Source: a virus
Strand: one strand, 5' to 3'
Length of the DNA stretch: 64,000 nt
Virus record (IMG/VR): IMGVR_UViG_3300034105_003474
Coordinates: 32,001-96,000 of that record
Below the pieces are notes generated by a model, which saw only the letters and a list, made by a program, of their open reading frames with translations, ran no database searches and had not been told where the DNA came from. A program made the position numbers and the translations under genes. Shown here piece after piece: positions 20,362 through 64,000 of the stretch. Each line of letters begins with the position of its first letter. Position 1 is the first letter of the stretch.

Positions 20362-20433
20362 AAGCGGTTAGCCCCGCTATTGAATAACGGATCCTCACCA
20401 ATAATTGTCACCCGTGAGTGCCAGTTGGTGAGG

Positions 20434-22209: not shown

Positions 22210-22310
22210 ATATATAAGTATATACCCGTACTGTCATATTGTCAACCCCATAAATGCCCTAATTTACGGGCTTTGATGATATATCTAGATGGATGGGGTA
22301 GTGTAGAGAT

Positions 22311-23113: not shown

Positions 23114-23116
23114 GCA

Positions 23117-26655: not shown

Positions 26656-26667
26656 GATTTTTTTAGT

Positions 26668-42426: not shown

Positions 42427-42427
42427 T

Positions 42428-42835
42428 TTACTTTGTTTCCTTTTTAAACTCCGCCCAAGTTTTATCCCCAACACCGTAATATTCTCTGGCGTTTCCTGAT
42501 TCAATCATATCAATATTCAGGCATGCTGTTTGAGCGTCATCAATTTTGTCTGATGAATAAATTCTTGCCAAAACACGACCATACTTGTCATTCTTGTCAG
42601 GAATGGTGTTAACAAAAACCCATTTGTGGTTAGTCATCCAATCTTCAACAAACTTTTTTGCTTTAATACCCAACTCTTTTTCCTTCAGATCTTTCGTTCT
42701 TGACTCTGGTGTATTGATCCCATATAGGCGAACACGAATTTTATGATGCACGCTGAAACCAAGATCAACCATAAGGTCAACCGTGTCTCCGTCAACTACT
42801 TTTAGAATTGTTGCTCCATACCAAAATCTTTCCAT
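42428..42835 (-). CDS. Staphylococcal-nuclease (thermonuclease) homologue
   Basis: VVDGDTVD, RVRLYGINTPE, DKYGRVLA. Confidence 0.9.
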   Translation of the reverse strand: MERFWYGATILKVVDGDTVDLMVDLGFSVHHKIRVRLYGINTPESRTKDLKEKELGIKAKKFVEDWMTNHKWVFVNTIPDKNDKYGRVLARIYSSDKIDDAQTACLNIDMIESGNAREYYGVGDKTWAEFKKETK

Positions 42836-42837
42836 GA

Positions 42838-45130: not shown

Positions 45131-46405
45131 CTATAAAATCAGACTATTTGAGTAATGTCGTTTGACCACTTTTGGGCAACATCCTTTGGAATATTTGACT
45201 CCGTATTCGCCTTCTTGGAATCCAACCCACTTTTTGCTCGTTTTACGGTTCCTCCATGGGTGATCCAACGGAAGTAGATCGTTGTCATCAAAGTATTTTA
45301 CATCGGCTGGTTTGTCGGAGTTCAGCAACGCCAAAAACTTGTAGACACGCTTCTTTGCAACATCTTTTGAACCATCTTCCAAGCCTCGTAAGAACACTAT
45401 TTTTAGGTCACGAAGGTTAGTTTTTGCTGTAGGTTTTGCTTTGGCGTTGTTGTTTCTTACTCGTACAGCCAAATCGTTGATATCGCTACTAGTCACGGTT
45501 GGTGGCTTCTTCTTAGGTTTTGGAACACCCTTAAAAGAGAGCACCCCCTCCCCGAATAAAGACTTACCCGGATTTGGGTACTGTGCAGCCTGTTGATTAT
45601 GCAGATTCCGTGCATATGTATCGGCATCTTGTATGTTTGAAAACTTACCTAAATGCTGACCGCTTCTTTGGTAGTGCTTAATGGCTTCTCGGTCGCTTAC
45701 TATTACGCCACTCCCATTAGGTCTTTTGATTACCGTAGGGATGACAACAGCCGTATTCCCTTCGGTGATTGTCATGGAACGAACCGTGCTGATAGACCCG
45801 TCGCGATTTTTCACAACAGGGCGATTATTTAAATCTATATTGCCTTTGGTTATTTCACCCTTTGGTCGTTTCTCCTGTTTAGGTGAAACCCGTGTATCAT
45901 CTGCACCACCCGGTGTGGACGCAACATAGCCGTCACCGTCGCCATCAATTGGTTTATTCCCACTACTGTCAACAGAACCACCAATGGGTGTACCTAAAAC
46001 TTTTTTCCCAAATTTGGAACCTTGTCGTCTTGGGTTGTTCCTAGGGCTGTTATCCCCTCGGATACCTGTTACACGGTTGTAGTCAGACACATTCGTGCAA
46101 GGAAGCCAAACCAGTTTTCCATCCCGTGCCGTATAGCGACGAATACCTATACATCCAAGATTGCGTGCACGGATACGGGCAGACTCAGGGTCACTGAAAG
46201 TATCAGGGTCTGTGGAACGGCTAACAAAGTTAACGAAACCCTTCTGCTCTACAGGTTTTTCTAAAGTCTGCTTTTTGTTCATGCCTTTGATGTACTCGGC
46301 AGGATTTTGATTTTTCACTATTGTAAAGTAATAAAAATCAGCCTTCTCGGCAGGGGAGAAGGTCTGTATCAGAGAGGCTAATTCTCTTGATTCTTTTGGT
46401 GTCAT
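45131..46405 (-). CDS. Multidomain head-associated protein
   Basis: A..LGC.G...WLPC domain, DGDGDG loop, GNIDLNNRPVV...HLGKF domain, C-terminal DNDLLP.DHP domain. Confidence 0.7.
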   Translation of the reverse strand: MTPKESRELASLIQTFSPAEKADFYYFTIVKNQNPAEYIKGMNKKQTLEKPVEQKGFVNFVSRSTDPDTFSDPESARIRARNLGCIGIRRYTARDGKLVWLPCTNVSDYNRVTGIRGDNSPRNNPRRQGSKFGKKVLGTPIGGSVDSSGNKPIDGDGDGYVASTPGGADDTRVSPKQEKRPKGEITKGNIDLNNRPVVKNRDGSISTVRSMTITEGNTAVVIPTVIKRPNGSGVIVSDREAIKHYQRSGQHLGKFSNIQDADTYARNLHNQQAAQYPNPGKSLFGEGVLSFKGVPKPKKKPPTVTSSDINDLAVRVRNNNAKAKPTAKTNLRDLKIVFLRGLEDGSKDVAKKRVYKFLALLNSDKPADVKYFDDNDLLPLDHPWRNRKTSKKWVGFQEGEYGVKYSKGCCPKVVKRHYSNSLIL

Positions 46406-47697
46406 TCTGCACTCTCCTCAACAGCAAGCATTGACCTATCAAGAATAAGAATCACATTTGGCGAAACAGGGGAGCCAGAAACATCAGCAACAAATCCGTT
46501 GGAAACTCTCAAATTCAACCTAGAACCTCTTACCCCTTTAGAGACCAAAACTCTCCCGATATCGTCATCCCCATAAAAGGATGTTATTCCCTTTTTCACT
46601 CTCTCGCGATGTCCTGTTACTTCATCTGCGAAGTCTTCGCGTTCCATCAAAAAATCTGGAGGGATAGCAACTTTTATAACTTCACCTTTTCTTAGATTCC
46701 CCTGATCGTCAAACCCACCTTCGGCATAAACCTCGGCACTTTCTCTGTCTAGTGAGAAATGTATACCGTTACCGTGAGCACCCAATCCTGCAAAATAATC
46801 ACCTTTTCTGAAACCATCTGCCAGATCTTTGGCTTCAACAATAACTTCGTCATTTTCTGTATCAACGATGCTTGCAATCCCGCGATACGCAATAGTCCAT
46901 CCCTTTTTTTCTAGACTTGCCATTTCCAAAGATGAAACAACTTTTGGTAGACCTGTAAATCCCTGCATCTCAGCAATCATTTCCAATTGAATATCAGGCT
47001 TAACATCATTTTTTATTTTACTGAGTCTTTTGTTGTACTCTTTTCCGCCGTCTGATTTTTTGAATTCCTGAGCGTCTTTGCCAAAAAGTTTTCCCAATTG
47101 TTTTGTTATGTCTTTAGCCATTTTATTTTTACTATTCGCGATCGTGCTAGGAGCAACAGGAATATTGTCTTCTCCGTCGGGACCAGTAGTGAACCCGTCG
47201 CTATCGCCGTCAAACTCTGCTACACCACCAATAGGGCGACCTAAAGACTTGCCGGAAAACGAGCCAGTTACAAGCCCACCACCCGGCAAGGTTGCGATAC
47301 CAGAAATAGGTTTCTCGTCAAGGTTCTCCCAACCCCGTTTGGGTGCTTTGTGGTTGCAAACCGCATAATACTTTTTCCCTGCAAGAAGGATCGTTCGGAC
47401 ACCACCACAACCACGAGCCTTAGAAATAGCGACAGCATCAGCACGATTCTCGTAATATGCATCAGACTTTGTTTCTAAACGCTTTGTCCTTTGAACCATT
47501 TTGGGCAACGGCTTCTTCTTTTTGGAAGCACGAACTTTCAGGTATTCGTCTTTACCTTTTTTGATTGCTTCATATTCTTCACGCGAGGCGCAAGGCATCC
47601 AGCCTTTACCGTCTTCGTATACGCCTTGGCATCCAAGCATGCGTGCAACACGAAGAGCCTGATCGCGCGTTGTTTTATTCTTCTCGTCTTCAGACAT
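46402..47697 (-). CDS. Head-associated protein with C-terminal ADP-ribosyltransferase-like domain
   Basis: Two A..(L/R)GC.G repeats, DGDSDG loop; YRGI...G.GAHGNGIHFS...A..YA ART-like pattern. Confidence 0.55.
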   Translation of the reverse strand: MSEDEKNKTTRDQALRVARMLGCQGVYEDGKGWMPCASREEYEAIKKGKDEYLKVRASKKKKPLPKMVQRTKRLETKSDAYYENRADAVAISKARGCGGVRTILLAGKKYYAVCNHKAPKRGWENLDEKPISGIATLPGGGLVTGSFSGKSLGRPIGGVAEFDGDSDGFTTGPDGEDNIPVAPSTIANSKNKMAKDITKQLGKLFGKDAQEFKKSDGGKEYNKRLSKIKNDVKPDIQLEMIAEMQGFTGLPKVVSSLEMASLEKKGWTIAYRGIASIVDTENDEVIVEAKDLADGFRKGDYFAGLGAHGNGIHFSLDRESAEVYAEGGFDDQGNLRKGEVIKVAIPPDFLMEREDFADEVTGHRERVKKGITSFYGDDDIGRVLVSKGVRGSRLNLRVSNGFVADVSGSPVSPNVILILDRSMLAVEESAE

Positions 47698-47960
47698 TAT
47701 TCTTTTTCTTTTTTAGATATTTTTTCAACCTCTGAAGCATATTCCATAGACATCGCGTACTGATCAAATAGTTCATCTATTTTGTCCGCATTCTCTTTAT
47801 TCATCAGATATGAGACCATTGACTCAAGGTCGCCATCTTTTCCGTTTTCGTTTGCATACCCGTAGGCAATGGCAATAATTTTAGAACGTGTTTCAGGGTT
47901 CTTTACTGTCGTTAGCAGTTGATTTTTGATTGAGTTTTTTTGTTCTGTTGTGAGTTTCAT
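47697..47960 (-). CDS. Small acidic helical protein, putative immunity partner of the GNAT effector
   Basis: TAATG-coupled to the 931 aa gene. Confidence 0.5.
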   Translation of the reverse strand: MKLTTEQKNSIKNQLLTTVKNPETRSKIIAIAYGYANENGKDGDLESMVSYLMNKENADKIDELFDQYAMSMEYASEVEKISKKEKE

Positions 47961-50755
47961 TACGCCAACCTTGGTGGTTCTACTCGTATTCTAGGGCGAG
48001 CAATTTTTGCTTTCTTGGGAAGTTTCTGACCAATTTTTTGTTCAGCAAAAGATAGCGTTCCACCACCAAATCCAAGATTTGCTTTAAACCATTGTTTCAC
48101 ATATTCCATCTTTTCCCTGTCACCAGTAGGATCATCCAAAGCAAAGATTATGTCTTGATGCTGATACTGCTTACCACCTCTTGCTTGTGCAAGGATTGAT
48201 TTGATTCGCGCATATTCTGCGTCATTATTTATCAATCCGCCAGCACCAAAATCCTCATAAAATTTGAGAGGCGACTGAAGCACTTGTAGGTCTCTATCGG
48301 TCAAACCATAGTTTCTTTTGAATCCAACACGAGCCCAAACATACTGACCATCATCGGCTGCGTTCACATTTGCTTTAGTGACACCTATTTGCTTCAGATA
48401 GAGAAACGCATGTTGGTTATAAATTGTTTGAATATCAGCACCCCTATCAATTTTGCTTGTTACAAACATTGAATTTTGGCTTACGATACCCTGCGACACG
48501 CTTACGCTCCGAGACGAAGTAGCGATTTTTGCTCTTATAACTTCACCATTTGCGTTAATCTCGTCAAACTGAACCTGAACTTGAAACCCATTTTGGGGAG
48601 ACACTGTTGCCGTAGCACGGTAAAGTTTCCCGTTCTTACCTTCAATTCTTTGGTGAGAATAAGCCTGTTTCAAGTACTCTGCCTTTTGCGGAGCAGTGAG
48701 TCTTCCCCATTTTACGGGTGTCATGTCTTCATATGGTGCACCACCGTTTGGGTGCCGTTGCTTAAGATACTTAGCAAGTTTTCCTTGACGACGTTCAATC
48801 GCCTCGTTCACCTGATCATTGATCTTCTTCGCTACATCTTCTGGAAGCGGTCTAGGAATATTTGTTGCATCTGTGTTGAAAACAAAACCTTGTTTCCTTC
48901 TTTCTGATGCTTTCCGTATTTCTGGTCCTAATGCTTCTATCAACTGAATATGACCTTCATATTTTCCAATATCGGATTGCAGTTGAGCAATTTTTTTCAT
49001 TGTTTCAACACGGTTGAATTCTTTTACTTCTGGAGTATTGCCAAGAGGTGAACGCATAAGTCTGAATTCTGCGCTGAGTTGTGTTTCTAATTCCGCAAGT
49101 TTGGTTCGCGCACCTGCAACTCCACCTTGCGGTCTTACATATCCAATATATTTTCTTTTCGCTTCGGTAACTAAAGCCGATACATCAGCATTGGGATTTG
49201 CCCTCAGTAAATCTGCAACTCTTGAAAGTTCTTTTTGGAAGTTTCGTACCGCAAGTTGGCGACCTTCATTTTGGTTAAACAGTGCTTGATCGGCTGCTAA
49301 GCCAAGTTGTCCCAAAAGTTTTGGATCTCGCATTTGAAGTAATACTTCTTCAATAAGATCTTCATCTTCTTTTTTGAATTTCGCCGCTTCCATCTTGGGG
49401 GCAACATGCTTTAGTTCATCTGGCACATCCCTAACATCGCGTCTTGTCGGAGCATTGAAAGGTTCGTCAATTGGGTTTGGCACGCTTGACGGTTTCGGGG
49501 CAGGTGTTTCTCTTCTGTCGGAAGGCAGTTTATTGTGTTTCTCTACTTCTTTCCAAGCATTGATAACGTCATTGAGTTCTTCTTTTAATTCACGCACATT
49601 CATTTGTTCGTTTGCACCAGAAACAACATCAAGGGGACTCAAATCACCCCTATTCTGTGCTTGCTGTATGCGATCAAGTTGTGCTTGATGTATCAAAATA
49701 TTTCTTTTTGCAAGGTTTAGAGCGTTTGACCTTGGGTTCTGATCTGTTTGATTTATATCAGGGAAGTTAATTGGATCGTTTATTATTCTTAAACGTGCGT
49801 TCAATACATCTCTGTTGATTCGTTCAACAAAAGTTTCATCATTTAGCACATTATTCAAGTTCATGTGCCTTATTTTTTTGGGGCGAGCAGCCTCTGCCCT
49901 AACCTCTTCGGAACGAGCGGCATTGTCGCTTTCTCCGCGTGGAGCAGGTCGCGGAACTCGTCTTTGTTCTGATTCGGCATCAAGCATCGCACCAATGTCG
50001 CCTTCGGGTTTCTTTCTAGGGCGACGAGGTTTAACCACCTTTGGTTCTACAACTGGTTTTTCAACAATGTTTTGTGCTTGTTGTCTTGGTGCTTTAGGCT
50101 TGTTTGTTGCTTCAACAACTGCACGACGACGGCGACGAGCAGGTGCTTCACCAGTACGAGGTGCACCGGGTTGTTCAATCTCACGATCCATGCGTCGTTG
50201 TTCTGATTCTCTAACATTTGGCGCACGCCTTCTCTGTGGTGCACGAGGAGCAGGTGGAGTAGGGGTTAACTCTCTTGGAGTGGCAGGTGCATCAACGGAT
50301 GGTTGTCGGGTAACAACAGTTCGCCTACGGGCACCACGAGGACTTGGGGTATCGGAAACTTCTAATCTGTCTGCAACACCACGCAAACCTCGCTCTAGGC
50401 GACCTGCGCCACCGCTTTGAGGATTAAGTCTTGCAAGTATTCGTCGTTCACGACGAGCAATACGACGACCACGGCGAGCATCATCAACATTCTCTAAGCG
50501 TTGACCAATATCTGATATTTGATTAGCGATGCGTCGTGCGACACCCCAACCGCAAGACCGACCAAAGCGATCGGTTATCTGTCCGCCATACCGTGTCCCC
50601 GTTGGACAGCGCCAGCCTCCACGACGGTTGGTGCCGGGTATAGAAAGACTTGGATCCCACATGGCGCGAACAGCCTTGACTTCATAAGCAATAGTTGACG
50701 TGTTCCGTTCGCTAAGAAAAGATTTTGCCTTAAAGTCGGCGATATTCTGAAGCAT
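47960..50755 (-). CDS. Polymorphic effector: conserved RCPxG domain + Arg/Pro linker + C-terminal GNAT-like domain
   Basis: WDPSLSIPGTNRRGGWRCP...; DRGADIQTIYNQ...GV....VNAADDGQYVWARVGF. Confidence 0.7.
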   Translation of the reverse strand: MLQNIADFKAKSFLSERNTSTIAYEVKAVRAMWDPSLSIPGTNRRGGWRCPTGTRYGGQITDRFGRSCGWGVARRIANQISDIGQRLENVDDARRGRRIARRERRILARLNPQSGGAGRLERGLRGVADRLEVSDTPSPRGARRRTVVTRQPSVDAPATPRELTPTPPAPRAPQRRRAPNVRESEQRRMDREIEQPGAPRTGEAPARRRRRAVVEATNKPKAPRQQAQNIVEKPVVEPKVVKPRRPRKKPEGDIGAMLDAESEQRRVPRPAPRGESDNAARSEEVRAEAARPKKIRHMNLNNVLNDETFVERINRDVLNARLRIINDPINFPDINQTDQNPRSNALNLAKRNILIHQAQLDRIQQAQNRGDLSPLDVVSGANEQMNVRELKEELNDVINAWKEVEKHNKLPSDRRETPAPKPSSVPNPIDEPFNAPTRRDVRDVPDELKHVAPKMEAAKFKKEDEDLIEEVLLQMRDPKLLGQLGLAADQALFNQNEGRQLAVRNFQKELSRVADLLRANPNADVSALVTEAKRKYIGYVRPQGGVAGARTKLAELETQLSAEFRLMRSPLGNTPEVKEFNRVETMKKIAQLQSDIGKYEGHIQLIEALGPEIRKASERRKQGFVFNTDATNIPRPLPEDVAKKINDQVNEAIERRQGKLAKYLKQRHPNGGAPYEDMTPVKWGRLTAPQKAEYLKQAYSHQRIEGKNGKLYRATATVSPQNGFQVQVQFDEINANGEVIRAKIATSSRSVSVSQGIVSQNSMFVTSKIDRGADIQTIYNQHAFLYLKQIGVTKANVNAADDGQYVWARVGFKRNYGLTDRDLQVLQSPLKFYEDFGAGGLINNDAEYARIKSILAQARGGKQYQHQDIIFALDDPTGDREKMEYVKQWFKANLGFGGGTLSFAEQKIGQKLPKKAKIARPRIRVEPPRLA
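50492..50659 (-). repeat. 168-bp conserved module repeated at 53344-53511 and 56774-56941
   Basis: Three near-identical 56-aa blocks WDPSLSIPG...IG(E/Q)RLE. Confidence 0.9.
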
Positions 50756-50758
50756 GGT

Positions 50759-51076
50759 TTAAGCCTTAAAACTTTTTTTATTTGGAAGAGATTTAATTTG
50801 ATTTTTATACATTTCTTCAGTTACTTGCCCATCAGAACTGTATTGTGCGGACATTGAATTAAGACGGTAAAGAATATATTCCATTCCGCTTCCCTCTAAA
50901 GGGATCTCGTTTCGTGCCGACGATTCTGAAAGAATTTCAATAAGTTGATCAACAAGTTCTTTATCGGAAGCGTGTATTTCTACAAGTCCATCAATATTTT
51001 TTCCAGCGCAAGACCCATTTACCTTGTTTGTAAATGGATCCATGAATTGACCTATAAAAAACTCTTTCATGATCAC
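50759..51076 (-). CDS. Small protein, putative immunity partner of kinase 3
   Basis: Overlaps the stop of the 955 aa kinase gene. Confidence 0.5.
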   Translation of the reverse strand: MIMKEFFIGQFMDPFTNKVNGSCAGKNIDGLVEIHASDKELVDQLIEILSESSARNEIPLEGSGMEYILYRLNSMSAQYSSDGQVTEEMYKNQIKSLPNKKSFKA

Positions 51077-53940
51077 CTTTGGTTACTTGGAATTATATTG
51101 ACTATCTCATTTTCGGCGTTGCGAAGGTTTGCAAGACTTCGTACCATGCCATCATAAAGTGCTCCTGCTCGGGCTTTATTTGAGTCAGTCTTACTTACTT
51201 TCTGCAATGCGTCTGTTATGAATTGTTCACGACCGACAGCAAGTGTTTTTTCTGTTTGCACAACAACCTGTCTGTACACTTCTTGAATTCGCGCATAAGT
51301 TTCACGCCTTTGCGCGTCTGACATAGCGGGTAGTGCGGTGCGCATTGTGGCAAGAATGTCCTGATCCATTGAGAAACCCCGTTGGTAACGATCAAACAGC
51401 CCTCCGTGTGCCCTTCCAGCCCAACCCAAGTCCATCGGAACGACATGCGCTAATTTCTTGCCGTCTGGTAATTCCACTACACGACCCATACCGTTGCCTC
51501 CGTGGCGGTCGCTAACACCAAGAATATAGTTGGCTAGAACATTGGACAATCTTTCAGGAAGACCTTTATCTGGAAGAGCGTTCAGGGCTCCTTTGTTGAA
51601 ATCGTACCCACCAGCAGCACCGCCGATTACTGCCCCTTCAGGCACGTCGTTGTGTGCCAGAGGGATCATGATGTAAGGGGTTCCTTTTCGGACTGTTCCA
51701 AGAGGCTTTCGTACATCTGCTTCAAGTTTACCGTCTTGAATTGCTCCGTCTTCCAAGATCCCTACAGCAGCCAAGTAGTTCCATCCAATGAGTTCGCCGA
51801 CATTGTCGGCAGGTTTTGCAGCCTTGAAAACCCATCCCTGATTAGTCGGATTTCCATTTTCATCACGCAAAAAGTAAATTTTAGTTACACCTACAGCGCC
51901 ACCGTTGGGTTGTACTTTTTTGAAACGCTTATTTGTGTCTCGTGGGTCTGATGAAGCGTTTGCCTCTATGGCAATGTGCATGAATTTTGCTGGAACTTTT
52001 TGTATGTCTCCACCATTTTTTATATGGTCAATTGCTTTTTGTTCCGTATTAATTGTTCGGTCTTCTTCGGAAACAAACTTTCCGATAGGGGAGTTCCTTC
52101 TGTCTATCTTTAACTTACCATGAGCATTTTTTGATCTTGCAAACTTACGGAATGGTGATTTCTTTTGTCCTTGAGCCGCTGCTCTTGGTGCAGTAGGTGG
52201 TTTAGGTGTCGTTGGTGAATTGTCTTCTGTCGCTGGGAATTCCCCTGAAGGACCGCCAGCAGCAGCATAAATAAATTCTGCGAAGTTGTTGTAGTCACTT
52301 ACCGTATGGCGACCGCCATAGCCCTGTTCGTAAGAGTTCCCATCTGGTTCGCGTAGAGTAAATTTTGTTAATTTTCCATTACCGTCAAACTCTGGAGTAA
52401 GCGTGTAACCATTTCGTGTCCACATAGTTTTATCTGTGTTAAGAACCCAATTTGAATTTAAATTCAACTTTTCCAAATTGTTCAGTGGTTGATTATTAGG
52501 TGCTTGTCCCTGTTGTTGAGCAGGACGTGCTGGTCTCACAGGTCGCGCTGGTGCTGGCTCTGGAACATCATCGGCGGTTGGTTTGCGTGTAGCGCTACGA
52601 GCGGCACCTGCTGTTGTTGCCTTCTTGCGACGACCACGATTATTCCGTGGGCGACGAGCCTGTGGTGTTGGCGGTTCAAAATCTTGTGGTGCACTACGAC
52701 CGTGAGCATCTTTCCAAGCGTCACGAAGATTAGGTTTGTTGATTGCATACCATTCACGCCGTGTCAGCATTCCTGCGTTTCCACCACCTGCGCGAATCTC
52801 ACGAACACGCTTAGCGTATTCATCGTATTTTCTTAATACATACGGGCTGAAACCTTCGGTTGCACTTGCGTCTGATGCTTCGCGTGCTGTGAGTACATCA
52901 ACGTTTTCTGCTTGTGGTGCAACGCGTGGGCGTGGCTGTGGTCGTCTTTGTCCTGCTGGCGCTGGTCGGCGTGCAGGACGAGGTGTTGACGCAGGCGTTG
53001 GCGCTGTTTCAGGAATAACATCGCGTCTCCTGTTTTGTGGTCTACGAGCCGATGGTGCACCTGCTTCAGGTAGTACATCTTCGCTTCTTTCGCGACCACC
53101 ATTTCCGTTAACAACTCTGTCTAAAACACTTCCGGGTCGCAGGTCATCTGCTATGCGGTTGCCAAGTTCAGCAAAACCAGGACCGCCTCTTCGCTGTCGC
53201 GGTTTAGCACCACCTTCAAGACGATCAGCAATACCGCGCAATCCACCTTCAACGCGACCAGTCTCAGGAACTCCACCAAGCCGTCTAATCATTCGTGCGT
53301 TACGACGGTCAAGGCGACGCTTTCGTTTGTCGTCGTCTCGTTGTTCTAAGCGTTCACCGATGTCGGCGATTTGGTTGGCGATGCGACGCGCTACGCCCCA
53401 ACCGCACGAACGACCAAAACGATCGGTGATCTGTCCGCCATATCGTGTCCCTACAGGGCATCGGAAACCACCACGACGATTCGTGCCGGGAATAGAAAGA
53501 CTCGGATCCCAAATTGCTCGCACACCTTTGATTTCAAAGTTGAAAGATGATTGGGTTTGGTCAGAGATAAATGATGAAGCCTTGAAACTCAGAACATTTT
53601 GGAATTCTTCGTTTGAAAACTCAGAAAGTAAAACCTCAGATATTGAAAGAACAGGAAGGTTTTTGGTTTCTACAATTTCCGGTTTAAGGAATGCAAGGTT
53701 TGCAACCTTTTTCTCTATCGCTGATCCTGATGGGCTTGGACCTTCAATAATTTTTGATGAGTCCATTGTTTGAACTAGTTCAGGTTTTGTTATAGGTGTT
53801 TTGCCATATTCTTGACGGAGAAATGTGGCAACTTCTTTAGCGGCTTCGGTCATTGGCTTGAAGGTGGATCCTTCAGGGGTCGTTGAGACGACCATAAATG
53901 GTGTGTTGTCGCGATTTTTGATAATGAAAACTAGGTTCAT
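51073..53940 (-). CDS. Polymorphic effector with HipA/PI3-4K-like kinase domain
   Basis: Conserved module; GGAVG loop, WVFK, GELIG, SDRHGGN, PMDLG. Confidence 0.75.
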   Translation of the reverse strand: MNLVFIIKNRDNTPFMVVSTTPEGSTFKPMTEAAKEVATFLRQEYGKTPITKPELVQTMDSSKIIEGPSPSGSAIEKKVANLAFLKPEIVETKNLPVLSISEVLLSEFSNEEFQNVLSFKASSFISDQTQSSFNFEIKGVRAIWDPSLSIPGTNRRGGFRCPVGTRYGGQITDRFGRSCGWGVARRIANQIADIGERLEQRDDDKRKRRLDRRNARMIRRLGGVPETGRVEGGLRGIADRLEGGAKPRQRRGGPGFAELGNRIADDLRPGSVLDRVVNGNGGRERSEDVLPEAGAPSARRPQNRRRDVIPETAPTPASTPRPARRPAPAGQRRPQPRPRVAPQAENVDVLTAREASDASATEGFSPYVLRKYDEYAKRVREIRAGGGNAGMLTRREWYAINKPNLRDAWKDAHGRSAPQDFEPPTPQARRPRNNRGRRKKATTAGAARSATRKPTADDVPEPAPARPVRPARPAQQQGQAPNNQPLNNLEKLNLNSNWVLNTDKTMWTRNGYTLTPEFDGNGKLTKFTLREPDGNSYEQGYGGRHTVSDYNNFAEFIYAAAGGPSGEFPATEDNSPTTPKPPTAPRAAAQGQKKSPFRKFARSKNAHGKLKIDRRNSPIGKFVSEEDRTINTEQKAIDHIKNGGDIQKVPAKFMHIAIEANASSDPRDTNKRFKKVQPNGGAVGVTKIYFLRDENGNPTNQGWVFKAAKPADNVGELIGWNYLAAVGILEDGAIQDGKLEADVRKPLGTVRKGTPYIMIPLAHNDVPEGAVIGGAAGGYDFNKGALNALPDKGLPERLSNVLANYILGVSDRHGGNGMGRVVELPDGKKLAHVVPMDLGWAGRAHGGLFDRYQRGFSMDQDILATMRTALPAMSDAQRRETYARIQEVYRQVVVQTEKTLAVGREQFITDALQKVSKTDSNKARAGALYDGMVRSLANLRNAENEIVNIIPSNQR

Positions 53941-54062
53941 TGTTTACTTTCCACATTCGTGAAGATATTCAGCAAGCCATGCAAATCTTGAGGTTGCATT
54001 ATCGCTACCGTAAAATGGTATCACTAAGTGGGTGATATTAATTTTAGGTTGATGTCAATATA

Positions 54063-54359
54063 TTATTTGTTATCTAATTTTTTGTGACCCAAGGCAACTA
54101 GGAAATTATTAATTTTATCCTTATTTGAACCCTTGTACTCAAGTATTTCTGCATGACGGTATGAGTACCCATGCAACATACTCTCAAGGTCAGCCCTATC
54201 CGACGAGCCTTTCTTGACCGCCAAAAAGTGTTCATTGTCCTTTTTGTCTGAATCTTTATCCTTTGAGTAATACTTAATAATCCCTTTATCGTCCTCAACT
54301 ATGACGAGTGGATCCACCTGAACTAGTGGGTCTTTGGAGGTGATGATCGCTGCTCTCAT
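54063..54359 (-). CDS. Small protein, putative immunity partner of kinase 2
   Basis: Starts 5 nt after the stop of the 890 aa kinase gene. Confidence 0.5.
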   Translation of the reverse strand: MRAAIITSKDPLVQVDPLVIVEDDKGIIKYYSKDKDSDKKDNEHFLAVKKGSSDRADLESMLHGYSYRHAEILEYKGSNKDKINNFLVALGHKKLDNK

Positions 54360-54364
54360 GGTTC

Positions 54365-57037
54365 CTATGATCCTATAATCAAATCAGCAAGTCTGCCGGG
54401 GTCAACATCTGTTATATATTTCATTTTTCTTTGCGGTTTTACGCCAACCCTCAAAAGAGCCTGATCCCCACCCCTAGGGTTAGCGGTTCCATCCCCACCG
54501 GCTTTCAGTACATCTTCAACAACATTCATATACGGGTTTTTACGCTCTGCCTCACGGATGGACTTCTGAACCTCTTCAACGGCTAAGAGTATCTCGCGCC
54601 GACTTATTTGCCTATCTTTGAATTGCTGTCTCAATGTTGCAAGCATCTCGTTTCTTCTACCACCAACATCGTTGCCTAAAAAGCCTCGTAATCCTTCGTC
54701 GTTGCCATCATAATTTTCGTGAGCCCGCCCACCCCAGTTGACATCAAACCCAAGAGAAGGATCAATTGGGACGAACCGCTTCTTACCACTGGAGTCAGTC
54801 GCTACAAAGAAGTTCCCTCCATGGCGGTCTCTGTTGACCATGATGTAGTCCAAAAGTGTCGCTCTAACACGATCGGCAGGTTTTATTTGCGACACGGCTA
54901 CTTGATTTCTTCCGTCTGTCAGCACCCCATCAACGTAGTTCCCTGCGTGTTCATAAACAATAGCCCTACCAGCGCTGTTAGGGGCACCCGGTCCACCTTT
55001 TTGTTTCCCATCCATTCGCACACCACCGACAGGCATGCCAAGTCTACCAGCAAGATTATTGCCGATCACTTCATGAATGTCTTCGTTTTCTGCATGGGCA
55101 CCACTTTGGTATTTTAAGAAAAACTTGTTCCCAGTGATGGCGTCGGTAAACATATGCATATTGTTGGGAATGTTGCCGTTAACACCACCACCAGCATCTG
55201 ATTTAGAGAATCTTGTTGTTGCACCGTGTAGTGCTTCACCCAATAACTCATCAGGGACATCAGCCAAATCTCCACCTTTTTCTAGGTGGTCAATTGCTTG
55301 CTCCTTGGTATCCATACCTTTGTTCCCCAATGGAACGCTTTTCACATCAGGCAAACCGTCTTCACCTAATTTGTTCAGTTTTTCTGGTGCATGACCATCT
55401 TTTGCTTTTGGTGGTGAGACATCCCATCCACCTTCTGGTTCTGGTATGTCTGCTGGTCGTTGTGGTGGTTGCGCTGGTGACTGTACGCGTGGAGCGTTCT
55501 GGTCGTTGACATTATTATTTGGTACAACAACTTGATTTCGTTGCCTAAATTCAATAGCAGCATCAATTTCAGCAAGTCTTAATTCGGCAGCGGAAACTCC
55601 GTCTTTTATTTTTTCTTTTTGTCCCCACATTCGCAATAAATTATCTCTGGCTTCGTCTCTTTCTCGTTCGCTACCATTCTTTTTACTCTGCCAGTCTTCA
55701 AAGGCTCTATCAAATCCTGCTTGAGCCTCTTTGAGAAGTTCTTGATCTCTAATTTTCTTTCCCAAAACTTCTTCTTTGGACATGTTGCGCAAATTATTGT
55801 AAGCGTTCGGCTTGTATCTTTCAATTTCCCCTTCTACTGCTTTGACTAAAGCCTCGTCTCTTTGCTGGTCAAACTCCCTGCGAGGGTTTATGTCTCTTGC
55901 TGGCAGTGGCGGTGGACCTGCTCGTCGTGCAGGTGCTTCAGGTTCAGGCTGTGGCGCTCCTGCTTGTTGCCCAAATATTTGTTGGTTAACAAAATTGCCA
56001 CGAGCATTACGCTTATTGTTGTCATCGTAATACCGACCAAACCTTCTCTCTAGTTCGGCTTTTTCTTCGCCTTCAGGGAAGTCTGGTTTACGCCAATACG
56101 CATCTTCGGGTAATCCGCGAAGATCGCCAAATCGGTTAACAACATTACGGATAGAACGATCGTCCGGTATGCTCCCTCCCAACTCGTCTGCTGTTGGGTT
56201 CCATGCGGGTGGTGGTGGAATTGGTGATGATTGTTCCGCTGGTCGTTCTGGTGGTTTTGGTGCGGGTTTTCTGCGTGGCACCTTTGTCGGTACAGGTTTT
56301 GAACCGTCAACAAAATCTGCTTCAGGTTTTCTTCTAACAGTTCTTTTTGCGCCTTGTTGTGTAGCGTTTCGTCGGCGTCGTCGTGGAGCATTTGGTGCGG
56401 GTGGTTCACCTGTGCGTGGTGCGCCGGGTTGAACTATTTCTCTGTCCATTCTTCGTGCTTCTGATTCACGGAGATTTCCTCTTCTCCGAGGTGCCCGTGC
56501 TGGTTCTCTTGCTGGTTGTTCAGCATCTCCGCCAACAGGGATTCTTGGACGAGCAGGAGGTTCTATGCGTGCAGGATTTTGAACAGCGATTCGTGGACGA
56601 GCAGGAGCGCGTGGAGTAGTTACTGGTTTTCCAGTTGCTCCACCATCTAACGCGTCTGCCAAACCGCGAGCGCCACGCTCAAGTAAGCCGGGTTTATCTT
56701 GACGAGCCAAAAACCGTTGCACACGCGCATTCCGTTTTGCCAAACGAGCATTTCGTTTACGGTCGTCAACATTCTCTAGCCGTTCACCAATATCTGCTAT
56801 CTGGTTTGCGATTCTCCGAGCAACACCCCACCCGCAAGACCGTCCATAACGGTCTGTAATTTGACCGCCGTATCTTGTGCCAACAGGGCAACGCCAACCG
56901 CCACGACGATTCGTGCCCGGAATAGACAAACTTGGATCCCAAAGCGCACGAGCGCCTTTAACATCATAATTAAAAGTACTTGCAGTTTGCTCAGCGAGAA
57001 ACGCGAGCGCCTTGTAATTCACTTCATTCTTGAGCAT
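54365..57037 (-). CDS. Polymorphic effector with HipA/PI3-4K-like kinase domain
   Basis: Conserved module; GGGVNG, FLKY, HEVIG, NRDRHGGN, PIDPS. Confidence 0.78.
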   Translation of the reverse strand: MLKNEVNYKALAFLAEQTASTFNYDVKGARALWDPSLSIPGTNRRGGWRCPVGTRYGGQITDRYGRSCGWGVARRIANQIADIGERLENVDDRKRNARLAKRNARVQRFLARQDKPGLLERGARGLADALDGGATGKPVTTPRAPARPRIAVQNPARIEPPARPRIPVGGDAEQPAREPARAPRRRGNLRESEARRMDREIVQPGAPRTGEPPAPNAPRRRRRNATQQGAKRTVRRKPEADFVDGSKPVPTKVPRRKPAPKPPERPAEQSSPIPPPPAWNPTADELGGSIPDDRSIRNVVNRFGDLRGLPEDAYWRKPDFPEGEEKAELERRFGRYYDDNNKRNARGNFVNQQIFGQQAGAPQPEPEAPARRAGPPPLPARDINPRREFDQQRDEALVKAVEGEIERYKPNAYNNLRNMSKEEVLGKKIRDQELLKEAQAGFDRAFEDWQSKKNGSERERDEARDNLLRMWGQKEKIKDGVSAAELRLAEIDAAIEFRQRNQVVVPNNNVNDQNAPRVQSPAQPPQRPADIPEPEGGWDVSPPKAKDGHAPEKLNKLGEDGLPDVKSVPLGNKGMDTKEQAIDHLEKGGDLADVPDELLGEALHGATTRFSKSDAGGGVNGNIPNNMHMFTDAITGNKFFLKYQSGAHAENEDIHEVIGNNLAGRLGMPVGGVRMDGKQKGGPGAPNSAGRAIVYEHAGNYVDGVLTDGRNQVAVSQIKPADRVRATLLDYIMVNRDRHGGNFFVATDSSGKKRFVPIDPSLGFDVNWGGRAHENYDGNDEGLRGFLGNDVGGRRNEMLATLRQQFKDRQISRREILLAVEEVQKSIREAERKNPYMNVVEDVLKAGGDGTANPRGGDQALLRVGVKPQRKMKYITDVDPGRLADLIIGS

Positions 57038-58756
57038 TTATTTTTTCTTCTTTGCGCTGACCAAGTCTGGCTTAATGAAGGTTTCGTACTGCCAACGAGG
57101 TGCTGTTCTTTCAATACCGTCAAGACCTGTGTAAGTAACAAGTTCCAACGGCTTAGGAACATTTCCTGTATCGGTGATAAACTTAAATGCACCTTCTGAG
57201 TTTTTGGCAAAATTCTCAATATTTGAAATAATGTTATCTTTTGTGCTTGATTCTGCAAGAGAGTTAATCATTCGTGGGAACTTGCGCTTCTCGCCAATCG
57301 TAAATGGTCGTGAACGCTCAATACTTACCACTACACCGTTTGGTGCAACAAACGCAATTTTACTCATTGAAGGACCACCCAATAGTGCCAGATCATCTGC
57401 TCCTATATCAGCAGGTAGTTGAATGGCGCGAACCATTGCGCCGTCAACCATGTCAGGGTTCTCGCTAAAAGAACGAAGAACAGATGAAGCAACAACAGGA
57501 CGCAAAACCACTCCGTCTCTGCGGATCATTCTGCCTTCACCTTTTGGTGCGCCTTTAAGCAAGTTGATTGAATCCGATACTGAACGGTTGAATTTATCTT
57601 TTTGGAATGCACCTGTTCGTGGTATCTGTGCCATGCGCTGAATTTGAATTGTTCGCGCTGCTGTCGGTGAACCTTCTAATACTTCGGACAGATTCTCTGC
57701 TCGCGCTTGTGGAAGTTTTGGTGATGCTGTCGGGCGCATTGCTCGCCTTATGAGTTCTAGCGGACCTGGTATTTCAAACAACTGCGCACCACAAGTGGAG
57801 AAACGATTGTCCGTGAAACGACCACCAAATTCAAAACCGGCAGGGCATCGTGCTTGACGCCTGCGATTAGGCTTGAGCCTGCTGAGCGCCCCACCGCCAC
57901 CGCCGGGAATAAGTGCGCCATAAAGTCTTGAGCGAATAGGTGCGCTGAATGGGGATATGTTGCCCGGTGTTACTACAGAACCAACTGCCTGAGCCGCTCT
58001 ACCAAGTCCACTTGAAGAACCAACAAGACCTGCTTTGATTTCCATGTCTTCAGCGTCATCTTTTTCAACACGGTATCCACCGCCACGCTTCTTGTATTCG
58101 CGAACAAGCCAAGCGTTAGCGTAAGCAGAAGGGTATACATTGAATTTCTTTTTTGCTTCGGCTTTTACTCGCGCATAAAGTTCTTTGTCCGTTGGGATAT
58201 TCGCACCTTTTAATGTGGTCTCATCAGATTTGAATGTGGACACATTGATCGGCTTGTTTTCTTCTCGGTTACCCGCTGTTTCTGCACGACGCTTTCTGCG
58301 AACAGCGGAATCAATTTCTTCTGCGGACATTCTCATCGCTGTAGATTTCTTTACACACTTAGGGTATTTACCTGAATCTGCGTCTCCGCGACCACATGAC
58401 TCAAATCCGCCACCTTTTTTCGGGCGTGAAATATCAACCCATTCTTCTTCAAACCATTTCCCTAATCCACCGCGCTTGGATTCATCACCGATAAAGGTTT
58501 CTGCACCTAGTTTTGATGTACGAGACTTTAGGTAAAGTTTTGCTTTAAAGTTTAGAAGAGCCCTACTTCCGTCAAGCGGAGTTTTACGAACATCTGATCC
58601 TTTAGTGAAAAGGAATTTTGTTTTTGCATTATCAGGGTTAAAATAAATTTCCTCACCAGAGACAATATTCGTCCGTTTCATAGCAGTTTTCATACGCATA
58701 GACATACGGAGTTTTCTCGCAAAATACTCAAAGTCTTGGTTGAGATAACTACTCAT
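57038..58756 (-). CDS. Multidomain head-associated protein (DUF5872-like domains + divergent RCPxG module)
   Basis: GL.KWF.E.WVDI; YPSAYANAWLVREYKKRGG; RCPAGFEFGGRFTDNRFSTC. Confidence 0.65.
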   Translation of the reverse strand: MSSYLNQDFEYFARKLRMSMRMKTAMKRTNIVSGEEIYFNPDNAKTKFLFTKGSDVRKTPLDGSRALLNFKAKLYLKSRTSKLGAETFIGDESKRGGLGKWFEEEWVDISRPKKGGGFESCGRGDADSGKYPKCVKKSTAMRMSAEEIDSAVRRKRRAETAGNREENKPINVSTFKSDETTLKGANIPTDKELYARVKAEAKKKFNVYPSAYANAWLVREYKKRGGGYRVEKDDAEDMEIKAGLVGSSSGLGRAAQAVGSVVTPGNISPFSAPIRSRLYGALIPGGGGGALSRLKPNRRRQARCPAGFEFGGRFTDNRFSTCGAQLFEIPGPLELIRRAMRPTASPKLPQARAENLSEVLEGSPTAARTIQIQRMAQIPRTGAFQKDKFNRSVSDSINLLKGAPKGEGRMIRRDGVVLRPVVASSVLRSFSENPDMVDGAMVRAIQLPADIGADDLALLGGPSMSKIAFVAPNGVVVSIERSRPFTIGEKRKFPRMINSLAESSTKDNIISNIENFAKNSEGAFKFITDTGNVPKPLELVTYTGLDGIERTAPRWQYETFIKPDLVSAKKKK

Positions 58757-59066
58757 TTTTTGCCGATTCTTTCGGTTCTTCAGGTTCCGCTATTTCTGCG
58801 GGCAAGGTTGTCTTCCACTTTTTAGCCAACTGCCTTAAAAGTGTAATATTTTTTTCATCCAGCACATTAGTACTAACACTATGATACGACATTCCCGAGG
58901 TTGCTTTTTCAATAGTGTCCCTTTGGGACAGAAACAATTCGTTTGTCAAACTTGATGCGAACTTCGGGTCAGGGGCTACCACACCAAAAATGCCGTAATC
59001 CCCCTCAAGAAGAACATATGGGATACCTGAAACATCGGCACTCGGGGTAACTAGGGCGTATCTCAT
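58749..59066 (-). CDS. Small protein, putative immunity partner of kinase 1
   Basis: ATGA overlap with the 617 aa kinase gene. Confidence 0.5.
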   Translation of the reverse strand: MRYALVTPSADVSGIPYVLLEGDYGIFGVVAPDPKFASSLTNELFLSQRDTIEKATSGMSYHSVSTNVLDEKNITLLRQLAKKWKTTLPAEIAEPEEPKESAKNE

Positions 59067-60916
59067 ACAACACTCGCGACTATATCTTCCAACGCTGAGT
59101 CAGCCTTGAGTTTTGGTGGTTTTACAACAAGGTCTGCCAATTGTTTTGGGGTCATTGCTTGCATCTCTCTTAAGCGTGACGACGCCTTTCCGATGTCTGC
59201 CTGCATCTTTTCCATTTCTTTCAACTTTTCGGGAGACATCGCCCATTCTCCTATCAAATTACGATCTTTCAGCATCTCGTCAAGTTGACTCAAGAGACGA
59301 TTTTCCAATGAATCTGCGTCAATTTTCTTTATATCTTGGAGAACTTTTTCAGCATCCTCAACCAGTTTTGCATGCTTCTCAACTGTCCCACCGTGGCGAC
59401 TATTCAGTTCTTGACCAAGATAACCATATTGAAGACCGCCAGCAAACTTTTCTGCTGTTTCGCTGAAATCAAAAACGTTGAGAATAAAACTATGGTCAAT
59501 GGGGACTGCGTCCACACCATCAGAGTTTTCAGCAAAAAGGATGTTTCCGCTATGCCTGTCACCATTAGCCATAGCAATATCCATGATTTGCATATGGAGT
59601 AGTTTGCGACTGTCCACCTTTGCCAATGTTTCAGGGGTGGCAGAGAGTATTTGTCCCTCATATGAGTTGTGAACCAAATCGGTTACTACTCCCATGGCTG
59701 CCTGTGTCGGGGATGCTTGAACAACTCGCAAAGATGAAGATGGATACCCAAAGTCTTCTGTCATGGAAACAGCAAGAACTTCGCTCGCTGGCTCATACCA
59801 TCGGGATGCTCCTCCCTTGGTCAGAGGGGCATTGCTTAACGGGGATTTTTTATCCCAAAGTTGTGTGCGTGAAGCGTATTTAACGCCCAACATTTGACCT
59901 GTAGTTCTATCACGCAAGCGGTTCATTCCAACCACTCCCCCACCAGTGCCAATAAGTTCAAACCTCTTCAGTTCCGCAATGTTCCCATCCTCGTCGTAAA
60001 CATCAATATTTTCTAGGATTGCGTCAAGAACCAGAGTGTCGCTGATTTCGTTCAGTTTCCCGCCATTAGCGATATGTTGTGAAGCCTTTTCACCAGTATC
60101 AATGTTTTTATCCACGCTAGGTAAATCACGGGCAATGTTCCTACCGTTGGCATCAGCAACACCAATTTGTGGGTCAAAGTCTTTAGCCTTGGCAATAGCG
60201 CTGTTGCCTTTCTTGAACCCGCTAGGGGATTTGACCACGGGTGGATCAGCCTTTGGATCGTCTTTTTTATCTTTGCGACGCTTTAATGTCGCTAAGAGGA
60301 AATTCTTTGCATCAACGGTGGCGTCTCGTTTAATCTTCCCCGCTACTGCTTCCAACTGTTCTTTTTTCTTGTCAGATATTTTCCCGCGCCTATGAAGCGA
60401 GTCAGTAGCAAAGTCCAATAGTTGCGCACCGCCAGACTTCAATAAAACCATACCGAAAAGCGTAGATTGTGTCATTGAATCTGAACCATCTGCGTACATG
60501 TAATCCATTGTTTGCAGGGCAATCATCGCCGCTGCTTTTGAACCATTTTTTACTTTTTCAGATTTGAAAATTACCCGAGCGCCATCAATCAATTTTCCAG
60601 CCATGGAAGCCGCCCCGCGTGCTGCTGATTCAGCAGAAGGGGTGAGGCAGTTGGACATCTGCATGTCGGTGAACTGATTTGCGTTAGGTGTACCGGGTGG
60701 GCATCGCAACTTACCCAAAGAATCAACTATCACCCCCGCAGCACGCGCCGCTCTATGACCAACAGAGGTTAACTCTGGTCGGTCTTTTACAGTAGGTCCA
60801 AGGAAACCTTTGAACAGCAAAACATTCTCTTGAACAGCAGCAACAGATTTGCGGTATTCTGCAACTCTCTCGTTTGCGTCAAAAGCGCGAGACGATTTAA
60901 TCATCGCCTCAACCAA
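59063..60916 (-). CDS. Polymorphic effector with HipA/PI3-4K-like kinase domain (divergent RCPxG module)
   Basis: RCPPGTPNANQFTDMQMSNC; GGGVVG, GVKY, SEVLA, NGDRHSGN, PIDHS. Confidence 0.75.
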   Translation of the reverse strand: MVEAMIKSSRAFDANERVAEYRKSVAAVQENVLLFKGFLGPTVKDRPELTSVGHRAARAAGVIVDSLGKLRCPPGTPNANQFTDMQMSNCLTPSAESAARGAASMAGKLIDGARVIFKSEKVKNGSKAAAMIALQTMDYMYADGSDSMTQSTLFGMVLLKSGGAQLLDFATDSLHRRGKISDKKKEQLEAVAGKIKRDATVDAKNFLLATLKRRKDKKDDPKADPPVVKSPSGFKKGNSAIAKAKDFDPQIGVADANGRNIARDLPSVDKNIDTGEKASQHIANGGKLNEISDTLVLDAILENIDVYDEDGNIAELKRFELIGTGGGVVGMNRLRDRTTGQMLGVKYASRTQLWDKKSPLSNAPLTKGGASRWYEPASEVLAVSMTEDFGYPSSSLRVVQASPTQAAMGVVTDLVHNSYEGQILSATPETLAKVDSRKLLHMQIMDIAMANGDRHSGNILFAENSDGVDAVPIDHSFILNVFDFSETAEKFAGGLQYGYLGQELNSRHGGTVEKHAKLVEDAEKVLQDIKKIDADSLENRLLSQLDEMLKDRNLIGEWAMSPEKLKEMEKMQADIGKASSRLREMQAMTPKQLADLVVKPPKLKADSALEDIVASVV

Positions 60917-61246
60917 CTATTTGTCGCTAGATTCTGACGCTTTGTTAAAGAAAGAAAGTGGAACAACATCATCATCCTCTGCATCTTTTTTCTTAGAAGG
61001 CTTTTTCGTTTCCACTTTGGTTTCTTGTGCATCCTCAACAGGTTCATCAACGCTGATCTCTACTGATGCAGGTGTTTCAACTTCCAACACTGCTTCTTCA
61101 ACGACAACTACTTCCTCTTTGACTTCAACCTCAACAACAGAAATCTGAACTTCAGGCGTCTCAACTACGGGCACTTGTTCTTGTTTTGTGTCAAAAGCAA
61201 GACCAGAAGTGTTCACTGAGTCAAAAGGTTGGTTTTCTTTTTTCAT
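60917..61246 (-). CDS. Glu/Val-rich low-complexity protein
   Basis: Coupled to both flanking genes. Confidence 0.55.
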   Translation of the reverse strand: MKKENQPFDSVNTSGLAFDTKQEQVPVVETPEVQISVVEVEVKEEVVVVEEAVLEVETPASVEISVDEPVEDAQETKVETKKPSKKKDAEDDDVVPLSFFNKASESSDK

Positions 61247-63999: not shown

Positions 64000-64000
64000 T

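Follow-up and report, generated by a model that had tools for sequence, protein, structure and literature searches.

A head-operon array of modular kinase and GNAT-fold proteins with small partner genes in an uncultured lake-water phage

The DNA analyzed here, hereafter the window, is a 64,000-nucleotide stretch of an uncultured tailed phage (bases 32001-96000 of one 144,873-bp contig, IMG/VR record IMGVR_UViG_3300034105_003474; 46% G+C). Between the genes for the prohead protease (62779 onwards) and the HK97-type capsid protein (43681-45006), it contains an array of large, modular proteins: three with kinase domains (C, D and F), one with a GNAT-fold domain (B), one with a putative ADP-ribosyltransferase (ART)-like domain (A) and a basic protein, E. 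We favor, with modest confidence, the view that this array represents a new family of capsid-packed, injected effector/inhibitor pairs of a lake-water actinophage. The anatomy of the array is new and well supported; the concept of virion-delivered, multi-enzyme phage proteins is already known. A literature search found no paper describing the N-terminal module of these proteins or the array. Positions are those of the window, and genes lie on its minus strand unless marked otherwise. An earlier sequence-only reading of this DNA had given the coordinates of the array's open reading frames (ORFs) correctly, all on that strand.

The shared N-terminal module and its viral family

Three of the array proteins share an extended N-terminal module. 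Protein B (47960-50755; 931 amino acids, aa) consists of the module at residues 1-140 (50336-50755), a basic linker and the GNAT-fold domain at residues ~641-931 (47963-48835). Protein C (51073-53940; 955 aa) has a 112-aa N-terminal extension, the module at residues 113-250 (53191-53604), a linker and a kinase domain at residues 611-955 (51076-52110). In protein D (54365-57037; 890 aa), an Arg/Pro-rich basic linker (residues 138-560) joins the module (residues 1-137; 56627-57037) to the kinase domain (residues 561-890; 54368-55357).

The 56-aa block that the sequence-only reading had described as near-identical in these three ORFs (B, 50492-50659; C, 53344-53511; D, 56774-56941) is indeed 93-96% identical at the protein level. 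The corresponding nucleotide identity is 77-81%, falling to 45-52% at third codon positions, and 24-32 of the 56 codons differ synonymously. Because the peptide has been preserved while the DNA has diverged to this extent, the pattern indicates that the core is under strong, long-standing purifying selection and that the similarity reflects neither chance nor a recent duplication. The shared region exceeds this core: ~135-140 aa are 65% identical among B, C and D, and the similarity extends over ~210 aa for B versus D.

The same reading had assigned divergent RCPxG versions to E and F. These are present, each limited to a 27-aa RCPxG...FTD...C core that matches the module profile weakly. Specifically, E scored ~8e-5 against the module profile in a 14-protein database, and E and F orthologues in other contigs matched as well. 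In F (59063-60916; 617 aa), the core occupies residues 66-93 (60638-60721) and is followed by a Lys-rich linker and a kinase domain at residues 261-617 (59066-60136).

The module and the linkers are very basic, with isoelectric points (pI) of 10.5-11.5. In the predicted structure, the module comprises a helix, a small beta-knuckle bearing the two invariant Cys residues and a long helix of ~45 residues. Searches with 75 members returned no Pfam match, and a profile search of the PDB returned only eL37 (E 0.18). Using Foldseek, nothing was retrieved from the PDB at E <= 0.001, and BFVD yielded only the family's own uncharacterised homologues. A wide search with VIA gave generic coiled-coil matches, which involved the long helix only (Z <= 5.7). 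The modelled module accordingly appears to be without a recognised fold, which, given the medium confidence of the model, does not in itself prove that the fold is novel.

A profile search of 1.84 billion proteins retrieved 255 module-containing clusters at 50% identity. The module was invariably near the N-terminus, in proteins of 800-4528 aa. Using kinase and GNAT profiles built in this analysis, a C-terminal domain was recognised in 133 of the 150 best representatives and was kinase only, GNAT only, or both. The architectures were module-kinase (63), module-GNAT (50), module-kinase-kinase (11) and module-GNAT(n)-kinase (9); the remainder were mostly fragments. The module occurred alone in 21 representatives, four of them longer than 700 aa. 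In P0083, a giant relative of 4528 aa, the module is followed by seven GNAT-type domains in tandem, and a kinase ends the protein. Pfam analysis of nine long family members detected PI3_PI4_kinase and nothing else. The sequence-only reading had called the C-terminal domains swappable and had looked to diverse C-termini as support. They belong to the kinase and GNAT families only: the family draws on two types of enzyme, variously fused, split and duplicated, and is no open catalogue of toxins.

The related contigs are, without exception, uncultured viral genomes, and no genuine copy of the module was found in 185,579 prokaryote species genomes. Two matches in that set were rejected as chance, as they correspond to Arg/Gly-rich alternative frames in high-GC metagenome-assembled genomes and overlap other long open frames. 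The family is thus uncharacterised, as had been proposed: it is virus-only and without Pfam, PDB or fold match. A profile search with the module, of the kind suggested at the time, recovered the family; its position in the head module and its small downstream genes are described below.

Enzyme domains, partner genes and cassette exchange

The C-terminal domain common to C, D and F spans ~330 aa and contains the DRHxGN and P(I/M)D motifs by which three kinase domains had originally been recognised. Across 24 diverse members of the kinase family, a Lys and a Glu are conserved, together with the D-R-H-x-x-N loop and, in the P-I/M-D motif, the metal-binding Asp. Pfam PI3_PI4_kinase (PF00454) matched 20 of these 24 at E <= 0.1, and HipA_2 matched 12, weakly (best 8.8e-6). 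For the window proteins, the PF00454 score was 29.3 bits for F (1e-6; gathering cutoff 27.1) and 17.7 bits, below the cutoff, for D; C gave no hit. The PF00454 alignment spans just ~40 residues around the catalytic loop. Against the PDB, the kinase profile matched mTOR, PI4KB and CtkA of Helicobacter at E ~1e-3. PHROGs searches with D, E and F returned families of 'unknown function' only. Judging from these profiles, the C-termini of C, D and F appear to be atypical protein-kinase-like domains, related to PI3/PI4 kinases and HipA, with their catalytic residues intact; this assignment stops short of the lipid-kinase family proper.

The C-terminal ~290 aa of B matched no sequence in Pfam or the PDB, so its assignment as a GNAT domain is made from its fold, which agrees with the GNAT-like call of the sequence-only reading. 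The AlphaFold2 model had a predicted local distance difference test (pLDDT) score of 83. Its top Foldseek matches were all GNAT/p300 acetyltransferases (E ~1e-3), and its VIA matches, with moderate Z scores of 6.5-7.8 over 102-146 residues, were all GNAT. The tRNA-acetylating toxins TacT, AtaT and KacT were among the fold matches. In an Atlas search with the domain, rows 4-10 were Acetyltransf_1 clusters. Finally, the alignment of the domain retains a K/R-x-x-G-x-A/Q-like loop, comparable to the acetyl-CoA pyrophosphate-binding loop, Q/R-x-x-G-x-G/A.

The four closely linked ORFs of 87-105 aa that had been noted after the kinase and GNAT genes are real. They overlap the upstream gene by 1-4 nucleotides or lie 5 nucleotides downstream of it, and they are kept in related contigs down to 27-40% identity. 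The partner of the D kinase is sK1 (54063-54359; 98 aa). The partner of the F kinase, sK2 (58749-59066; 105 aa), overlaps the F stop codon by 4 nucleotides and is conserved in at least 17 loci. The third, sC (50759-51076; 105 aa), is coupled to the C kinase and travels with that kinase type, and sG (47697-47960; 87 aa) is coupled to B and represents a separate family that occurs after GNAT genes only. Homology of sK1 and sK2 was detected using jackhmmer and hhalign (99.8%), and the sK family matched no Pfam family. The hhalign comparison of sC with sK was weak (P 0.017 over 54 columns), and sG was unrelated to the others; a single family for all partners is therefore unsupported beyond sK1 and sK2.

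In the wider family, a tightly linked ORF of 60-150 aa was present at 102 of 113 enzyme genes. When clustered at 45% identity, ~31 kinase clusters were each associated with one small-ORF cluster, and one GNAT cluster paired with two. No small-ORF cluster was common to kinase and GNAT genes.

The sequence-only reading had proposed modelling each effector with its partner. For the D kinase and sK1, the prediction supports binding. The interface score (ipSAE) was 0.77, 0.77 and 0.75 for the pair and 0.00 in all three controls. The mark set by this pair was attained in 58 of 80 solved complexes and in two of 110 mismatched pairs. The pLDDT of the partner was at least 83, and the runs had at least 68% of contacts in common. 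On the kinase, the confident interface comprises the G-loop (residues 53-59), the catalytic Lys82, the catalytic loop (residues 177-182) and Asp199. The invariant Tyr67 of sK1 is placed in the kinase cleft. In this model, sK1 is thus predicted to sit in the active-site cleft of the D kinase.

Comparison of the window with two related loci located an exchange within the array. The DNA of locus L006 is 92% identical to the window from 60747 down to 52529 and unrelated through the C kinase and sC. Locus L004 shows the reverse pattern, being 75-79% identical in that left part and 94.7% identical over 52167-50261. The recombination breakpoint in C is in the linker, at ~52167-52529. At the protein level, C and its L006 orthologue share 88.7% identity over residues 1-467 and ~30% thereafter, and the next ORF in L006, of 114 aa, is unrelated.

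Similar replacements occur elsewhere in the family. Among 210 protein pairs whose modules are at least 85% identical, 85 have C-terminal 300-aa regions that are at most 40% identical; in the extreme pair, the module is 100% identical and the C-terminus 27% identical. The replacements remain within one enzyme superfamily (26-32% identity). The similarity of the small ORFs tracks that of the C-termini, with a Spearman coefficient of 0.85 that is descriptive, as the pairs are not independent. Specifically, the median identity × coverage of the downstream small ORFs was 10% in C-terminally divergent pairs and 72% in similar ones. The proposed combination of a conserved N-terminus with a variable C-terminus and a small downstream gene is supported; the latter two are exchanged together among proteins whose modules are near-identical, with breakpoints in the linker. 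These alignments indicate that a kinase domain and its small ORF are replaced as a unit by recombination in the linker. Such joint exchange of enzyme and partner suggests a conflict with a variable target outside the phage, the signature of an arms race.

Genomic setting, protein E and a second carrier

The gene content is that of a tailed phage, with a large terminase subunit, a tail sheath, an HK97-type capsid protein, a prohead protease of the S78 type and a portal to which a MuF domain is fused at the C-terminus. The window contains no tRNA genes. In the 13 of 59 IMG/VR loci covered by the gene-order comparison, the order is constant: portal-MuF, protease, Y, (sY), kinase with sK, E, module-kinase with sK, module-kinase with sC, module-GNAT with sG, An-Zn-Zc and capsid. 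In every mapped locus, the module genes sit between the protease and capsid genes.

The portal gene lies just past the window end (window positions 64978-67182, equivalent to L061:2978-5182), and its Phage_Mu_F domain occupies residues 641-728 of the protein. The S78 protease (62779-64000, continuing past the window to ~64881) has a long acidic C-terminal region and was identified on L061:779-2881 (Pfam Peptidase_S78 6e-11; phrog_80 3e-31). Y (61246-62724; 492 aa) has a pI of 4.3, a net charge of -59 and a PepSY match; it is conserved in all related loci and is a candidate scaffold-like protein. It is followed by sY (60917-61246), an acidic ORF of 109 aa. Both Y and sY are strongly acidic (pI 4.2-4.3), and the protease tail is likewise very acidic. 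The major capsid protein at the far end of the array (Pfam Phage_capsid 8e-48; phrog_10 1e-65) has an N-terminal coiled-coil, delta-like region of ~160 aa.

The host is probably an actinobacterium. The main clue is a WhiB-like 104-aa ORF outside the window (G000:C1 ~26,350-26,665, plus strand) with a Cys-x(n)-Cys-x2-Cys-x5-Cys pattern and a GVWAG turn. In addition, the nearest matches of the capsid protein are in Gordonia and Brevibacterium phages (47-48% identity). The region 51073-57037 was held almost word for word (90-100% of sampled words) by at least 20 lake-water metagenome runs released in 2020-2024, many of which may derive from the source campaign and so do not constitute independent evidence of spread. 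No RNA run was listed among them. The phage is persistent in lake water.

Two further observations concern the surroundings of the capsid gene. Three ORFs lie downstream of it (42079-43599, minus strand). That at 42428-42835 resembles a staphylococcal-nuclease-type protein, judged from motif alone; those at 42079-42504 and 42838-43599 contain CxxC-type Cys clusters, and the latter, of 253 aa, is kept beside the capsid gene in related loci. Separately, a related capsid protein is found in the Gordonia phage ChisanaKitsune (L001), an actinophage in culture. Between portal and capsid, this phage has ~13 kb of genes (10536-23944), annotated as an RNA ligase, a VIP2-like ADP-ribosyltransferase toxin, a 970-aa 'HNH endonuclease', hydrolases and others. 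This stretch is possibly a cargo region comparable to the array, in a phage amenable to cultivation.

Protein E (57038-58756; 572 aa) is basic, with DUF5872 in its N-terminal half (Pfam 5e-14) and the RCPxG core at residues 297-323 (57788-57868). Neither a kinase nor a GNAT nor any other enzyme domain is recognisable in it, and an Atlas search with its C-terminal half gave scores all below 0.8. E is the most conserved gene of the array, with 77-95% identity in close IMG/VR loci and 44-64% in more distant ones. Over short stretches, residues 96-229 (DUF5872; phrog_23735) are 41-79% identical to hypothetical proteins from phages of Pelagibacter, Roseobacter and Synechococcus. The alignments indicate that this stretch is a small mobile domain of aquatic phages.

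Protein A (46402-47697; 431 aa) is built on a different carrier. Its N-terminal region (residues 1-150) has DUF3721-type Cys-pair motifs (Pfam DUF3721 4e-8), and residues ~231-431 form an ART-PolyVal-like domain. The ART-like call made for A stands only by way of its homologues, as A's own sequence does not match the ART-PolyVal profile. The C-terminal ~200 aa constitute a widespread, unannotated domain for which 57 relatives were found. Among 21 A homologues (38-67% identity), 13 match ART-PolyVal PF18760 (best 3e-4), and two match PARP.

The adjacent gene, Z (45131-46405; 424 aa), encodes a middle domain at residues 158-288 that also occurs in podophage ejection or internal virion proteins (tblastn 6e-25 to 4e-18). 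With residues 54-145 of a gp16-position 'DNA transfer protein' of a P22-like coliphage, this domain shares 47% identity (pairwise E 4e-29); with the protein that follows the internal virion proteins in the epsilon15-like phage SPN1S, it shares 44% (3e-24). By sequence, it appears to be the sole link to proteins known or annotated as ejected, and it concerns the neighbor Z rather than the module proteins.

In most relatives, A and Z form a single gene, An-Zn-Zc, encoding 375-450 aa. In the window, this gene is split and has two inserts, the ART-like domain in A and the middle domain in Z. The carrier has two conserved parts, an N-terminal one with the DUF3721-type Cys pairs and a C-terminal one, and variable inserts lie between the two. 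The L006 A/Z gene (13211-14350; 379 aa) lacks an insert, whereas that of L003 (5053-7260) has an Arr-type ADP-ribosyltransferase in this place. Given that the A/Z gene just precedes the capsid gene, a scaffold role was considered and rejected, because the capsid protein has its own N-terminal coiled coil and A/Z carries variable enzyme inserts.

An acidic motif, D-G-D-(G/S)-D-G-(F/Y), recurs after 'PIGG' just ahead of the variable inserts in A (residues ~158-175; ~47180-47230) and Z (residues ~150-162; ~45920-45960). It is also N-terminal in the free-standing ART-like homologues P0162, P0200 and P0203. This motif might bind calcium, be a site of cleavage or mark a recombination junction.

A model for the array, its alternatives and known systems

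We infer packaging, injection, inhibition, targets and toxicity from the anatomy, family, folds, synteny and cassette exchange described above and from the predicted partner binding. In the model, the basic N-terminal module would anchor the protein within the prohead by attaching to DNA, to the portal-MuF protein or to the acidic scaffold-like proteins. A long, disordered, Arg/Pro-rich basic linker would join this module to a terminal protein-modifying enzyme: a kinase in C, D and F, a GNAT in B and, on a different carrier, an ADP-ribosyltransferase in A. The small cognate gene is translationally coupled, and its product would plug the active-site cleft, silencing the enzyme in the producing cell. 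As this partner has no module, it would stay behind at packaging. After ejection, the freed enzymes could phosphorylate, acetylate or ADP-ribosylate host proteins, in take-over of the cell or in counter-defence. Enzyme domain and partner would be swapped together through recombination in the linker.

If the proteins are packaged, they would form a new class of effectors delivered by the virion, and their recognisable sequence tag could help to identify the cargo proteins of metagenomic phages. To our knowledge, they would also be the first case of injected phage kinases with dedicated inhibitors that evolve by cassette exchange. Such effectors may shape phage-host dynamics in a dominant freshwater group, Actinobacteria being the probable host. 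In the small partners, atypical kinases would have specific inhibitors of natural origin, and the module is a candidate for a tag with which foreign proteins could be loaded into capsids. More tentatively still, the phages of the most abundant freshwater bacteria might possess a hypervariable arsenal of kinases, with GNAT and ART enzymes, in which a dedicated packaging module and mini-proteins that plug active sites are combined in ~30 types of kinase-plus-inhibitor cassette. In that case, the logic of toxin and immunity would have been recruited for injected effectors of host takeover or anti-defence.

Several points weigh against packaged effectors with inhibitory partners. The position of the array in a head operon is by itself no proof that its products are virion components. 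There is no cultured relative, and tblastn searches of 50,697 GenBank phage records with D and with A gave no match. The model of the module is of medium confidence (pLDDT 68; predicted template modelling score 0.35). The complex prediction used alignments built in this analysis and covers one pair, the D kinase with sK1; moreover, sK1 as modelled could be a substrate or pseudosubstrate of the kinase instead of an inhibitor. Finally, A of the window has no Pfam ART-PolyVal match at E values up to 1.

The enzymes involved also invite a different explanation. Known toxin-antitoxin systems count HipA-like kinases and GNAT enzymes among their toxins, HipA_2 matches half of the 24 kinase members considered, and TacT, AtaT and KacT are among the fold matches of B. 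With a partner predicted in the active site, and packaging itself something that we infer, the genes could encode late-expressed, unpackaged pairs of a toxin-antitoxin-like or regulatory kind. These would act in the infected cell, in lysis timing, late host shut-off, superinfection exclusion or phage competition, and their place in the head operon would merely reflect the timing of transcription. We consider this unlikely. A strongly selected module and basic, disordered linkers of 300-400 aa would be superfluous for a cytoplasmic pair, the protease-to-capsid position is constant in all mapped loci, the neighbor Z has a domain in common with ejection proteins, and Pfam revealed no HipB-like helix-turn-helix (HTH) antitoxin. 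The strongly basic module and linkers adjoin acidic scaffold-like proteins, the module is in part coiled-coil-like, and the head operon contains paralogous gene families, all of which would suit structural proteins of an inner body or scaffold. In that case, module and linkers would condense DNA or form an internal core, as in giant phages, and the enzyme domains would act on phage components inside the head or be relics. This appears quite improbable, as the catalytic residues are kept across diverse kinases, which argues against relics, and the rapid joint replacement of enzyme and partner points to an outside conflict rather than a fixed structural role. Moreover, the capsid protein has a delta-like N-terminal region of its own.

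A further possibility is that the targets are not in the host at all. A conserved N-terminus, a variable C-terminus and a small gene downstream are also what would be expected of polymorphic toxins directed at competing bacteria, and the kinase profile matches CtkA, which is a secreted kinase. Indeed, ADP-ribosyltransferases of freshwater actinophages have been proposed to be a 'Trojan horse' weapon against protist grazers (10.1101/670067). For the array, we judge such a role very unlikely: no N-terminal domain of a secretion type was detected, MuF belongs to the portal and not to the array proteins, a partner that acts at the active site and is made in the bacterial cell implies bacterial targets, and the repertoire is restricted to two enzyme families. 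The packaged effector/inhibitor pairs proposed here can be set beside several known systems.

Like T4 Alt and IPI-III and P22 gp7, gp20 and gp16, the array proteins are basic and made with the head. Like Alt, which ADP-ribosylates host proteins, their enzymes are proposed to modify host proteins on entry. Z, in turn, shares a domain of ~95-120 aa with annotated DNA transfer or head (virion) proteins of P22- and epsilon15-like phages. Unlike the T4-type internal proteins, the array proteins have no identified capsid-targeting sequence or cleavage motif and are far larger and modular. We know of no partner-inhibitor genes for T4 Alt.

The HipA/HipBST and TacT/AtaT/KacT systems resemble the array in the HipA_2-like signature of the kinases and the GNAT fold of B. 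HipS neutralises HipT, and a ~100-aa protein predicted in a kinase active site is reminiscent of HipS. The array differs from HipA/HipBST in that the partner gene is downstream rather than upstream, without Pfam similarity, and there is no HTH antitoxin gene. It also differs from both types of toxin in that its enzymes are the C-terminal domains of 600-950-aa proteins encoded in a head operon.

As in polymorphic toxin systems, a near-identical N-terminus is retained while the C-terminal domain and the next small gene are replaced, with the breakpoint just before the domain. Unlike those systems, the array has no known trafficking domain (RHS, LXG, MuF or PT-HINT) according to Pfam analysis of the whole proteins and of the module in 75 members, and the module family draws on only two enzyme families rather than unrelated toxin folds. 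No orphan cassettes were seen, though no search aimed at them was made. The statement in the sequence-only reading that no MuF domain is recognisable holds for the array, as Phage_Mu_F was not detected on A-F or Z, and does not extend to the portal just past the window. Thus, the array differs from MuF-anchored phage toxins in that MuF is fused to the portal and not N-terminal to the enzymes.

The closest published concept is that of the polyvalent proteins (Iyer, Burroughs, Anand, de Souza and Aravind 2017; PMC5512222), rather than MuF-type polymorphic toxins. Polyvalent proteins, of phages and conjugative elements, are described as virion-delivered, with ART, kinase and GNAT domains, and as encoded near portal and MuF genes. 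The array proteins are likewise large phage proteins with such domains, encoded among late structural genes near a portal-MuF gene, and packing into the virion with delivery alongside the DNA is proposed for both. The likeness extends to array relatives in which up to seven GNAT domains and a kinase are fused in one polypeptide, and to the homologues of A that match ART-PolyVal. Several features set the array apart. Its proteins have an anchor module of their own without Pfam, PDB or fold match. Its kinases are PI3/PI4K/HipA-like with a full C-lobe region, whereas those of the polyvalent proteins are truncated and of the Ser/Thr/Tyr type (PMC5512222). Each window protein has one catalytic domain, and nine representatives of the family fuse at least one GNAT with a kinase. 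Finally, in this phage genome the domains are split over paralogous genes, each with its own cognate small partner.

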